Virus record (IMG/VR): IMGVR_UViG_3300047160_035982
Coordinates: 13 to 64,012 of that record
Length of the DNA: 64,000 bases
Source of the DNA: a virus
Reading direction: 5' to 3' (one strand)
Part shown: positions 26,428-59,743 of the stretch, in pieces
Layout: the number at the start of each line of letters is the position of its first letter
How positions within the stretch are numbered: the stretch's first letter is position 1
Notes under the pieces: model-generated
Database searches by the model: none
Seen by the model: only the letters and a program-made list of their open reading frames with translations
What the model was told of the DNA's origin: nothing
Made by a program: the position numbers and the translations under genes

Positions 26428-26700
26428 ATGAAAAAAAGCGTGCTAATCAAGTTTCCCGAGGTGAAACACGGTGGCAAACGCCAGGGGGCAGGTCACAAAC
26501 CGTGCGATTCTGTCCGCCTTGAGTTCTCGATCCCGCGCCCGATCTATAACGAACTGGCTCGCCGGGAAGCCGTGAGCGGCATCTACCGAACCCGGATCGC
26601 CGCCACGATTTTGTGCGAAGAATTGATCGGCGGGATCGTTGATCGTGAGCTATCCTTTTACGGCAGGGTAGACAAGAGGCCTAAGTCACTACGCTCATAA
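26428..26700 (+). CDS. Small DNA-binding protein (GGxRxGAG motif, ribbon-helix-helix-like)
   Basis: KHGGKRQGAGHKP followed by strand-helix-helix; 3' end overlaps the tRNA. Confidence 0.45.
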   Translation: MKKSVLIKFPEVKHGGKRQGAGHKPCDSVRLEFSIPRPIYNELARREAVSGIYRTRIAATILCEELIGGIVDRELSFYGRVDKRPKSLRS

Positions 26701-26735
26701 CGTAGAAATCGAGAGTTCGAATCCCTCCCCTGCAA
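26662..26735 (+). tRNA. tRNA with CAT anticodon (Met or Ile2), CCA not encoded
   Basis: Folded by hand: acceptor GGCAGGG/CCCTGCA (G1:A72 mismatch), D-stem GAC/GTC, anticodon stem CTACG/CGTAG with loop CTCATAA, T-arm GAGAG-TTCGAAT-CCCTC (one mismatch), discriminator A. Confidence 0.75.
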
Positions 26736-47949: not shown

Positions 47950-49101
47950 ATGCACGACCGATATTCCGATACGCTCGACCACCCGAGGACTCTGCTGCCG
48001 ACGACTCAACTGCCCGATTTCAGCCGTAATTTCGCAGAGCTCGAGAAGCGTTGTAAACGCCCCTATTCGATCCTCAAGGTTGTCCGCGCCCTTTCGGACA
48101 AGCCGTCGCGCTTAGAAGGTTTCGAGGCTGAAGTCGACCAAGAGCTGAAGTCGTTGAACCCACGGCGCAGCGTAGATGGAATATTGATCCCGCTCGAGGC
48201 ATTAGCAGTATCGCGCCGTGACTTGACGACAGGCGTGCTGCCAGTGATCCAAACGACAATTTCACCAGATGAGCCTATCCCGTTTCTGCGGGTGAAATCT
48301 GTCTGCGCCCGTTGCGGAGCGACGCTGCTCGACGGGTTGACTGGCGGCAATATTTCACTGCCTAGAGCTTATGCGACTGCAGGTGCTGGGTGGTACGGCG
48401 AGGTCGGTCCGGTCCCGAGCGCTGACCAGTCTCTCGATAACATTACACTTTCGCCGAAACTGATCGCTGGCTCGACGATCGTCTCGAATCAATTACTCGC
48501 GCAAAGCTCGCTCGATATCGAGAGATTTGTTACCCGCGATATCAGCGACGCAATCGCGGTCGCGGTCGACCAGGCTGCGCTCTACGGCGCAGGCTCGGCG
48601 ACGGTGCCAAAGGGGATCATGAGCTACGCGGCAAACGGCGCAGGCAACTACAGCTACGGGCTGCGATCCGCTAGTCAGTCTTTTGGCGGAGCGGCAACTT
48701 GGGCTGCTGTCTTGAGCTTCGAAAAAACGCTCGAAGACGGGCGAATCCAGAACGATGGCACTTTCACCTTTGTTTCGACATCAGCAACGCGCACAAAATG
48801 GCAGCAAATCGCCAAGGTCGCGACTTACCCCGAGTTTCTATGGCAACAGCGCGACGACGAGTTGGACGGTCGCGTAAACGGCCGGCGCGCAGTTTCGAGC
48901 GCGCAAATCAGCGGCGACATCGTGCTCTGCGGAAAATTCTCTGAAATGATTCTTGCGAACTGGTTAGGAGTCGAACTTTTAGTGAACACGTACAGCCGCG
49001 CGATCAACGCTGAGACCGTGATCCTTGCCACGATGCTGTGCGACGTCGGGATTAGATATCCATTAGCGTTCTGCGCATCACTGGACTCAGGGGCTCAGTA
49101 A
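47950..49101 (+). CDS. HK97-fold major capsid protein (satellite)
   Basis: GATLLDGLTG.NISLPR, WYGE, ITLSPKLIAG...SNQLLAQSSLDIE, AVDQAALYG. Confidence 0.88.
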   Translation: MHDRYSDTLDHPRTLLPTTQLPDFSRNFAELEKRCKRPYSILKVVRALSDKPSRLEGFEAEVDQELKSLNPRRSVDGILIPLEALAVSRRDLTTGVLPVIQTTISPDEPIPFLRVKSVCARCGATLLDGLTGGNISLPRAYATAGAGWYGEVGPVPSADQSLDNITLSPKLIAGSTIVSNQLLAQSSLDIERFVTRDISDAIAVAVDQAALYGAGSATVPKGIMSYAANGAGNYSYGLRSASQSFGGAATWAAVLSFEKTLEDGRIQNDGTFTFVSTSATRTKWQQIAKVATYPEFLWQQRDDELDGRVNGRRAVSSAQISGDIVLCGKFSEMILANWLGVELLVNTYSRAINAETVILATMLCDVGIRYPLAFCASLDSGAQ

Positions 49102-49108
49102 GATCTTA

Positions 49109-49240
49109 GGAAAAACGAAAAGGCCAGCTTTTACACTGACCTTTTCTCCATGCATTGCCTCGCCAGACCGCGCCCAGCCATACCACGCCAAAGCGAGCCT
49201 TGCCGTGACGTCTTCAATATCGACTCGTTTGAATCACGCT
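49109..49240 (-). ncRNA. Orphan (NN-GGY)10 pentamer tract with flanking hairpins (putative guide D)
   Basis: Ten RCC-NN pentamers at 49157-49206; hairpin 49117-49146 whose loop CCAGCTTTTACACTGA resembles 58021-58037. Confidence 0.75.
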
Positions 49241-57940: not shown

Positions 57941-58007
57941 ATGTCATGAAATACTTCACGAGATCGTTGAGACTCGTCAGCGACGCGTACGCACTTGTTA
58001 GGACCCC

Positions 58008-58373
58008 AGAATGCCGCCGACCAGCTTGTTAAACTGATCGGCGGACTTCCATGCCAACGCCTTGCCTTGCCCGACCACCCCAGGCCTCACCCGGCCTCAC
58101 CTTGCCCGGAATGCCGCTGTCTGCTGAACAAGCCAAACAGCGGACTTCCATGCCATGCCTCGCCTTACCGGGCCGGACCCCGCCGCGCCACACCTGGCCG
58201 CGCCAAGCCGTACACTGCCCTGCCTTGCCGCGGAATGCCGCCCACTCTTTGCGAATGAGCGGACTTCCATGCTTTGCCTTGCCCGACCACGCCGCGCCAA
58301 AACGCGCCAAGCCCAACCTGGGCGTGCCTCGCCGGGGAATGCTGCCGACTCTTCCTTTAATCGGCAGATTTCC
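58008..58373 (-). ncRNA. Array of three (NN-GGY)n pentamer tracts separated by four conserved hairpins (putative guide RNA array)
   Basis: Tracts A 58053-58107, B 58152-58231 (16 pentamers), C 58271-58335 (13 pentamers); hairpins 58008-58050, 58108-58149, 58232-58268, 58336-58373. Confidence 0.88.
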
Positions 58374-58384
58374 ACAGCCTGACT

Positions 58385-59095
58385 TCACGCGTTCACTAAC
58401 TTTTGACGTTTCATCCATTGAGTTAAAGCCTGCTCAAGTTTCAGTAATGCCTCGACTGTGTCGTCGTCATCAGCCTCGATGTAATCGTCAGTAAGCAGGA
58501 TTGTTAGATCATCAGCCAACTTAATAACCTTTTGTCCACTGAGCGAGCGTTGGCGTTCGTCGATTGCTTTCACTTCTTTTTTGATCCACTGCTCATCCTT
58601 GCTCTGCATCTTGATCTGCAGCGGTTCAACTAGAGGCGCTTTTAAAACAACAGGTTTGACTGCGTCCGAGTCACTCCACACGCCGCGTTCACTAATAGCT
58701 TTCTCGAATTCAGAAACCGGGATGCGCACGATCTTGGCAATCTCCTCTGAAGAAAACTTCATGCGGGTTAACTGCATCGCTGCACTAAGCTTTTCCTGAT
58801 AGCTGAGGCCGTGACCGTGTGTGGCGTTGTCTTTAACGGCTAAAGGGAACCATTGTGTTTCGAGCTCTTTGGTTACGATTGCAGCGATCCGCGGCAACTT
58901 CCTTCGTCGGTGCGCCTCGTATCGGTGACGGCCTCCGATAATCACATAACGATCATCGCGTTTACCAACGAGAATCGGTGGCAAAACATCGCCTACGCGC
59001 AAGGCATCGAGCAGCGACTCGATGTGTCTCCAACTAACTTGATTGCGCGGATAGATCGTCTCATCAATCAAAATTCGGTCGATGCTGATATACAT
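58385..59095 (-). CDS. ParB/Srx N-terminal domain protein
   Basis: IYPRNQVS...LPPILV...YVIIGGRHRYEAH...NATHGHGLS. Confidence 0.8.
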   Translation of the reverse strand: MYISIDRILIDETIYPRNQVSWRHIESLLDALRVGDVLPPILVGKRDDRYVIIGGRHRYEAHRRRKLPRIAAIVTKELETQWFPLAVKDNATHGHGLSYQEKLSAAMQLTRMKFSSEEIAKIVRIPVSEFEKAISERGVWSDSDAVKPVVLKAPLVEPLQIKMQSKDEQWIKKEVKAIDERQRSLSGQKVIKLADDLTILLTDDYIEADDDDTVEALLKLEQALTQWMKRQKLVNA

Positions 59096-59098
59096 AGG

Positions 59099-59743
59099 TC
59101 AGGCTGCCTTTCTCTTTTTAGATTTCTTTTCTTCAAGAATCGTCGGCTCTGAATCGAAACCGACAATCTCGGGTTCAGGAATAAAAGCTTCTTCGCGCTG
59201 CGGCAACAACTCGAAGCGTTTTAGGTAATACTGCCCAAATGGGCCTTTCTTCTCTGGTCGAAAATCGCAGACGCCATTGAGCACTCCTGCAGTTTTGATT
59301 ATTTGCGGCCCAAATTTCTGCATGATGGGGATCGGAATCCATTCATCGCGGAAGTGCAGCTCAAACGTCACCTCCCACGGCCAGATCTTCGGTCGGCTAT
59401 GTGGCACGCGATTTTTCTGAATGACGACTGAGCGCGTATCGATCTTGTACTCTGTCGTGTTCAACGAAACGAATTCTGGCGTGATCGCGACACAACCGAT
59501 CATCGCTGTCGACATTTTCAACTTGCCGACTTTATAGTTGCCAGCAGCCTTAATGAAAGACCGGTAGAACGCTACCCCAGGAATCGCCAACGAGGATTTG
59601 TCGTCGGTCCAGTATAAGCGCTTTCTTGCTTCCTCAGCTGGATCGTAACTGACTTGCTTAACGCTCGTCTCACTGTTCATCGAGCTGATGTTATTCAATA
59701 AAGCGGGGGTCAACCCGCAAACTGTAATTTTGATTTGTCTCAT
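59099..59743 (-). CDS. RAMP/Cas7-like RRM protein (Vipr-like effector)
   Basis: ITVCGLTPALL (beta1), LAIPGVAFYRSFIKAA (IPG-helix), RPKIWPWEVTFEL, Gly-rich loop AGVLNGVCDFRPEKKGPFGQY. Confidence 0.75.
   Translation of the reverse strand: MRQIKITVCGLTPALLNNISSMNSETSVKQVSYDPAEEARKRLYWTDDKSSLAIPGVAFYRSFIKAAGNYKVGKLKMSTAMIGCVAITPEFVSLNTTEYKIDTRSVVIQKNRVPHSRPKIWPWEVTFELHFRDEWIPIPIMQKFGPQIIKTAGVLNGVCDFRPEKKGPFGQYYLKRFELLPQREEAFIPEPEIVGFDSEPTILEEKKSKKRKAA

Follow-up and report, generated by a model that had tools for sequence, protein, structure and literature searches.

Three guide-like tracts of pentamers lie between hairpins on the minus strand of a soil-borne viral element, from 58380 to 58005 of the window (the whole 64,000-nt stretch of DNA that was analysed). 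They raise the question of what such tracts read, and why the bases they pass over fall on the wobble position of codons. A preliminary description, made from the letters alone, had proposed that this gapped code effectively reads protein sequence, so that most synonymous changes cannot give escape and one guide can cover diverged relatives, and it had cautioned that diverged homologs are easiest to detect in exactly this phase. Our reading, to which we give a probability of about 0.88, is that these tracts and hairpins make up the vrRNA array of a VIPR (Viral Interference Programmable Repeat) system on a satellite- or prophage-like soil element, with its guides set in wobble register against rivals.

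VIPR was described in three 2026 preprints (10.64898/2026.04.26.720920, 10.64898/2026.04.26.720927, 10.64898/2026.10.15.759431) as a minimal RAMP protein (Vipr), an accessory gene (vap) and vrRNAs of 9-16 YNNGG units with a structured tail, the NN dinucleotides pairing with double-stranded DNA and one target base being skipped between them. The cryo-EM paper of this set shows structurally how a single base comes to be skipped, and a match of at least 80% of NN positions is the VIPR paper's target level, at which the published systems have no self-hits. Skip bases were reported to fall 'overwhelmingly' at the wobble position, so that synonymous escape is defeated (bioRxiv 10.64898/2026.04.26.720920, fig. 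S10 and Discussion). Another of the three puts this at its centre, with codon-periodic targets, an explicit argument on escape, position-2 bases that are invariant across 119 satellites, and vipr-targeting solo vrRNAs of which about 90% are wobble-aligned (10.64898/2026.10.15.759431). As these papers state the same wobble conclusion and the principle was already published for VIPR in 2026, the finding made here is a correct rediscovery. What the window contributes is a further, independent case from nature: a distant Vipr clade found in soil, a ParB_N accessory and guides directed at capsid genes.

Anatomy of the locus

The features are listed below in window coordinates, with the NN units of each guide tract in brackets.

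59099..59743, minus strand: vipr gene, 214 aa, RAMP/Cas7-like by profile, AF2 fold and phrog_4652, with no Pfam family
58385..59095, minus strand: vap accessory gene, 236 aa, with a ParB N-terminal domain (Pfam ParB_N, E 3.7e-7; PHROG ParB-like families), holding the guide C target
58827..58864, minus strand: near-self site of guide C, 21/26, vap codons 78-90, sense to the mRNA, skip base at codon position 3
58331..58380, minus strand: leader hairpin upstream of guide C, which aligns with the three tail hairpins
58271..58335, minus strand: guide C tract, 13 NN-GGY units (58335 to 58271: CC GA AC CA TG TT GC TT GC GT CG AA AA)
58230..58274, minus strand: tail hairpin after guide C, ATGGAAGTCCGC...GCGGCATTCC
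58152..58231, minus strand: guide B tract, 16 NN-GGY units (58231 to 58152: GC AA AG AG AC TT GC CA GT GC GG CC CC AA GA AT)
58106..58155, minus strand: tail hairpin after guide B
58059..58108, minus strand: guide A tract, 10 units (58108 to 58059: CG AA GA CG GA CT GT CG AA AA)
58007..58056, minus strand: tail hairpin after guide A
49157..49206, minus strand: solo guide D tract, 10 units, alone behind the capsid gene and convergent with it (49206 to 49157: AC AA TC TT GT AT TG GC CT GA)
47950..49101, plus strand: HK97-type major capsid gene (Pfam Phage_capsid, E 1.4e-32; phrog_617 major head protein), holding the near-self sites of guides B and D
48895..48923, minus strand: near-self site of guide D, 16/20, antisense to the capsid mRNA, skip base at codon position 3
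48676..48722, minus strand: near-self site of guide B, 23/32, antisense to the capsid mRNA, skip base at codon position 3

The array of guides C, B and A sits downstream of vipr and the ParB_N accessory gene on the same strand, and vap starts 3 nt after vipr. The tracts keep a strict 5-nt NN-GGY period and are set apart by four minus-strand hairpins that covary, their consensus (ATGGAAGTCCGC...GCGGCATTCC) having 14 pairs, of which 6 show compensatory double changes in an alignment of only four copies. The tail of guide D (49110-49156, minus strand) keeps the GCATGGA junction and then continues into a different hairpin and a T run (GAAAAGG...CCTTTTCGTTTTT), which from its sequence resembles an intrinsic terminator, placed right against the 3′ end of the capsid gene. 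Besides the capsid gene, the element carries two integrases and primase/helicase-like genes (Pfam, window), and a tRNA gene at 26662-26735 is the sole Rfam match in the window. The sequencing runs that contain parts of the locus are soil DNA only, with no RNA run among them.

A distant member of the VIPR family

An HMM of 16 database homologs of the window's Vipr matched PDB chain 36pp_D ('SUSP1 Vipr protein') over its full length at E 5.7e-16, with positions 1-173 aligned to chain residues 1-188, and the single sequence found SUSP1 Vipr as its sole PDB match at E 0.25. The AF2 model of Vipr (pLDDT 81) retrieved Csm3/Cas7 backbone subunits as the best Foldseek matches (probability 1.0, TM about 0.5). 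Like the type II VIPR systems of SUSP1 and of a Pseudomonas fulva prophage, the locus has a Vipr RAMP with profile homology to SUSP1 Vipr, predicted vrRNAs of 10-16 YNNGG units (13, 16 and 10 beside vipr, and a solo vrRNA of 10 away from the operon), a structured 3′ tail on each (four aligned covarying hairpins), and an adjacent accessory gene with a DNA-related function, here ParB_N. Its carrier is viral or proviral, its 1-nt skip falls at the wobble position, and its proposed targets lie in competing mobile elements and other VIPR systems.

Several traits set it apart from those systems. Its Vipr is distant from that of SUSP1, as the single-sequence E value indicates, and is 24% identical to the LESphi2 homolog; its accessory protein carries a ParB_N domain; its tail is read as a simple hairpin with a 2x2 internal loop, the SUSP1 tail being a pseudoknot; and it rides on a satellite-like carrier with an HK97 capsid of its own, two of its guides aiming at capsid genes. 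The neighbour gene in LESphi2, a Vipr-positive Pseudomonas phage, also differs from the window's ParB_N vap. Class 1 CRISPR-Cas backbones (Cas7/Csm3) share the RAMP fold, the protein filament on a guide RNA and the base-flipping thumb, but there every sixth base is flipped, whereas here the guide pairs 2 of 5 bases and 1 target base in 3 is skipped; the window also has no repeat-spacer array and no other cas genes. Class 1 CRISPR-Cas was rejected as an identity for the locus: there is no CRISPR-like array among the window's tandem and direct repeats, Rfam gives only the tRNA, and around vipr lie ParB_N, DUF2786/DUF7168 and replication genes instead of a cas operon.

Automatic calling over 103 loci, namely the window and its relatives from IMG/VR, metagenomes and other public assemblies, gave 251 NN-GGY tracts. 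All 247 tracts in the relatives' loci lie on the vipr strand, and the window's own 4 are likewise co-oriented. The locus is an uncharacterised new VIPR member, with a distant Vipr clade, a ParB_N accessory, capsid-directed guides and a satellite-like soil carrier. A ParB_N accessory gene stands beside vipr in only 9 of the 103 loci (L001, L002, L018, L019, L023-L026 and L029; the vipr-vap gene pair is also present in L002), and, judged from these sequences, the ParB_N vap is a trait of the closest sub-clade only. No tblastn match to vap was found among 50,697 cultured phage records, no Vipr protein was found in GTDB genomes, and the capsid protein had only two distant MAG matches there.

Guide matches within the window

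Both window strands were scanned with a 1-nt skip, scoring the NN pairs and passing over one target base between units, and significance was taken from 1000 unit-order shuffles per guide. Guide C matched best at 58864 to 58827 (21/26; runner-up 16; 0/1000 shuffles, P<0.001), guide B at 48722 to 48676 (23/32; runner-up 19; P=0.006) and guide D at 48923 to 48895 (16/20; runner-up 15; P=0.036 over the window, or 0.001 when confined to the capsid gene). As matches, these three exceed chance. Guide A had no outlier in the window, its top score of 15/20 not being significant by shuffling. When skip lengths were compared over 1.15 Mb (the window and the fetched loci, both strands), outliers arose with the 1-nt skip alone: guide B reached 28/32 with a 1-nt skip versus at most 22 with skips of 0, 2 or 3; the corresponding scores were 21 versus 19 for guide C and a marginal 16 versus 15 for guide D.

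Arithmetic from the ORF starts confirmed the preliminary description in placing the skipped base at codon position 3 in both capsid matches and in the ParB match. The skips of guide B fall at 48720, 48717 and so on, where (48720-47950) mod 3 = 2; those of guide D begin at 48921, where (48921-47950) mod 3 = 2; and those of guide C begin at 58862, where (59095-58862) mod 3 = 2. The guide C site in vap reads CTC GAA ACA CAA TGG TTC CCT TTA GCC GTT AAA GAC AA, that is, L E T Q W F P L A V K D N. A mismatch of guide B that had been described as a synonymous leucine change at codon position 1 is real as well: unit 4 (AG, in coding sense CTn) faces TTG at 48712-48714, both being Leu, and the capsid of L147, which fits guide B better, has CTG at this codon.

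The own-gene matches of guide C in vap (81%) and guide D in the capsid gene (80%) reach the VIPR paper's target level of at least 80%.

Fit of the guides to foreign homologs

Read in register, guide D gives the peptide S[SR]A[HQ][IM]T[KN][DE][FL]V, which at the protein level agrees at 10/10 residues with SSAQITNDFV in the capsid P0047 (77% identical) versus 7/10 with the own SSAQISGDIV, and by this comparison a P0047-type capsid is likely the true target of guide D. Across related contigs from four soil metagenomes, 4 of the 5 variable places in the guide D footprint are skip positions, and the fifth (48911 G>C, Ser to Thr) changes toward the guide.

Guide B encodes ..[FL]GGPAT[W]A[KN]VLL[FL], and the capsid clade at 50-55% identity has FGGP.TWANVLLF. 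Against the L147 capsid (about 54-55% amino acid identity), which is the only capsid of this clade compared with guide B as DNA, the match was 28/32, and 25/26 within units 2-14, again with the skipped base at codon position 3. Every top site of guide B listed in the 148-locus scan was a homologous capsid site. In all 44 of the capsid-homolog loci fetched, whose proteins share 29-55% identity, its best site was the homologous TFGG(A/P)ATWA motif at 20-28/32, and pairwise identity among the 39 distinct guide B capsid footprints was 0.82, 0.89 and 0.40 at codon positions 1, 2 and 3. This is what one would expect if the guide reads positions 1 and 2, is indifferent to wobble changes and covers relatives, and the three-part inference of the preliminary description is supported here, as wherever it could be put to a test. 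The TFGG(A/P)ATWA stretch (window 48676-48722; L103-L147) is among the most conserved of this HK97 capsid family.

Guide C encodes P[DE]T[HQ]W[FL]A[FL]AVR[KN][KN], in which residues of the own vap (LETQWFPLAVKDN) are mixed with those of its relatives (PE.QWFAEAVRLN) in a mosaic at a conserved place, the family motif being PE.QWFA.AVR.N, and its second-best DNA match (19/26) lies at the homologous codon in L023. The guides read conserved protein motifs and suit rivals better than self, which agrees with the prediction of the published model. Exact gapped patterns of the guide B core and of guides C, D and A each gave 0 matches in IMG/VR. For guide A, no target was found anywhere scanned (window, fetched loci and IMG/VR exact pattern), and none of guides A, B, C or D had a perfect-match target.

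Following the published mechanism, Vipr protomers would polymerise on each vrRNA and sequester every GGY, presenting the two variable bases of each pentamer, so that two target bases are paired and a third is flipped out. Such a complex is predicted to bind double-stranded DNA and thereby silence transcription. We infer this filament assembly, the binding and silencing of double-stranded DNA and the role in mobile-element competition by analogy with the characterised systems. Guides B and D would be aimed at conserved HK97-type capsid motifs of rival elements and guide C at a conserved motif in the ParB-like vap of rival VIPR systems, and at the homologous positions the own genes would give weaker echoes. 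Since the target is read with a period of three, an in-register guide reads only codon positions 1 and 2; synonymous mutation then offers no escape, and diverged homologs are still recognised, as wobble-skipping blinds the guides to most synonymous variation.

Origin of the register

The pooled NN dinucleotides of 188 relatives' tracts resemble sense codon positions 1-2 (r 0.80, KL 0.037; next model r 0.59), and a six-class mixture fitted to these tracts puts a weight of 0.95 on the class 'sense, skip = position 3'. Simulated true coding samples gave a mixture weight of 0.76, below that of the real guides. Since the real guides are more like codon positions 1-2 than simulated coding sequence is, an intrinsic preference or handle units may explain the signal, which hints at either a strong sense-strand bias in the clade or an intrinsic purine preference.

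One alternative is that the register was fixed at the birth of each guide, by in-frame copying or recombining of homologous coding sequence, own genes included, with the wobble alignment and the near-self matches as by-products. Guides B, C and D each echo one of the element's genes at the homologous site, guide C mixes own and foreign vap residues, and the codon-like composition of the relatives' tracts points the same way. We nevertheless consider it unlikely, as there is no known mechanism by which guides are acquired, B and D run antisense rather than sense, and the excess of the mixture weight over simulated coding leaves room for a purine preference or for handle units. A proposal in the same vein, and a rather improbable one, is that the wobble register and, in most relatives, the sense orientation were imprinted at guide making by in-frame copying from the coding sequence or mRNA of homologous genes, and not only kept by selection; if true, this would imply an unknown VIPR guide-acquisition route.

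Self-matches and possible autoregulation

With guides C and D matching own genes at 80% of NN positions or more, the sparing of self is an assumption, and these matches mean either that self is tolerated through specific mismatches or that there is some autoregulation. The fuller version of the latter, in which the own vap and capsid matches are the true targets and VIPR autoregulates the expression of its operon and of the capsid and is not directed at rivals, can point to the two scores at the published level. It is quite unlikely in our view, however: guide B suits a foreign capsid far better than the own one (28/32 versus 23/32), the guide D peptide is exact in a foreign capsid and agrees at only 7 of 10 residues in the own, and the published systems are free of self-hits at this level. 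Direction of the guides against rivals is the reading that we retain.

Ascertainment bias and a phase-neutral test

To quantify the bias, hypothetical guides were placed at every position and phase on homologs at about 50-55% amino acid identity (the L147 capsid; L002 and L023 vap) and scored at the aligned site in the window's gene. For 16-unit guides on the capsid with a threshold of 23, the probability of detection was 0.072, 0.010 and 0.243 for skips at codon positions 1, 2 and 3, and 0.75 of the detected guides were in phase 3; for 10 units with a threshold of 16 it was 0.052, 0.006 and 0.159, with 0.73 in phase 3. On vap, with 13 units and a threshold of 21, the values were 0, 0 and 0.230 for L002 and 0, 0 and 0.174 for L023, all detected guides being in phase 3 (1.0 in both cases). 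The caveat of the preliminary description was therefore correct and the effect is large, phase 3 being expected with a probability of 0.73-1.0 even if guides were uniform in phase. Under a uniform phase prior, the joint probability that all three own-gene matches are in phase 3 is about 0.55, versus a naive 1/27, so the window's own matches are compatible with the wobble rule but hardly test it. Even the chance matches of shuffled guides lean to phase 3 (37/93), because the NN composition of the guides resembles codon positions 1-2, and the L147 match carries part of the bias, as it was the near-self match that prompted the fetching of capsid loci. Since it is detection that selects phase 3, near-self echoes are no test of the phase rule, and this quantitative warning is one modest addition of this window.

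Pseudomonas phage LESphi2, which has three vrRNAs upstream of its Vipr homolog, provided a phase-neutral set. The exact 20-base gapped pattern of LESphi2 guide 1 matched 75 proviral contigs, and in those loci guide 2 matched at 21/22 and guide 3 at 20/24; the exact pattern of guide 2 gave 0 matches in IMG/VR because of its one mismatch. The three vrRNAs matched 75, 34 and 23 Pseudomonas provirus sites, and each of the three targets sits within a complete small ORF in its sense register; one of these ORFs resembles a ribbon-helix-helix regulator. Frames were assigned from the in-register translation and the phase of natural variation, as longest-ORF calls were spoiled by spurious antisense ORFs in this GC-rich DNA. 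Counting variable columns outside the footprints among distinct contexts, the skip register held 54 versus 24 and 22 in the other two, 33 versus 19 and 22, and 30 versus 21 and 15. The skipped base is thus wobble-aligned in 3/3 targets with no phase assumption (P=0.037 against one third, in a small sample), which points the same way as the published rule and lends the three-part inference a second line of evidence. The relatives' tracts contributed no more pairs: in an all-against-all search of 188 of the 202 unique guide tracts (at least 10 units; 103 loci) against 1.1 Mb of fetched loci, there was no excess over decoys (90 versus 65 and 100 for reversed or shuffled decoys, the window's B and C apart), and no further independent guide-target pair emerged.

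That there is no true phase preference, and that the alignment in the window is an ascertainment artefact in which only phase-3 guides echo in diverged homologs, is very improbable: the conditional probabilities of 0.75 and 0.73 (capsid) and 1.0 (vap) at the observed scores and the phase-3 lean of shuffled guides would accommodate it, but the phase-neutral LESphi2 searches found near-perfect targets that are all wobble-aligned, and the large published sets from other clades are 'overwhelmingly' wobble, or about 90% aligned.

Tract ends and solo tracts

Among the 202 unique tracts (L002-L102 and the window), the dinucleotides AA, GA and AG are strongly enriched at the tract end, making up the last unit in 144 and the second-last in 129, and the enrichment covers the last two or three units; the window's tracts end in AA AA, GA AT, AA AA and CT GA. 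The terminal units probably belong to the handle rather than the guide, in which case the NN-match percentages are deflated.

A solo NN-GGY tract lies within about 1.5 kb of the LESphi2 guide 1 target in 18 proviruses, namely L154 (minus strand from 7483) and 17 further Pseudomonas loci among L149-L223. No target at 80% or more was found for it in the 700 kb fetched. Its units are AA AT GT TT CG TT CT GT AG AC TT TT GT in 16 of these and a longer variant in 2, and by analogy such tracts may be solo or decoy vrRNAs like those of SUSP1 satellites.
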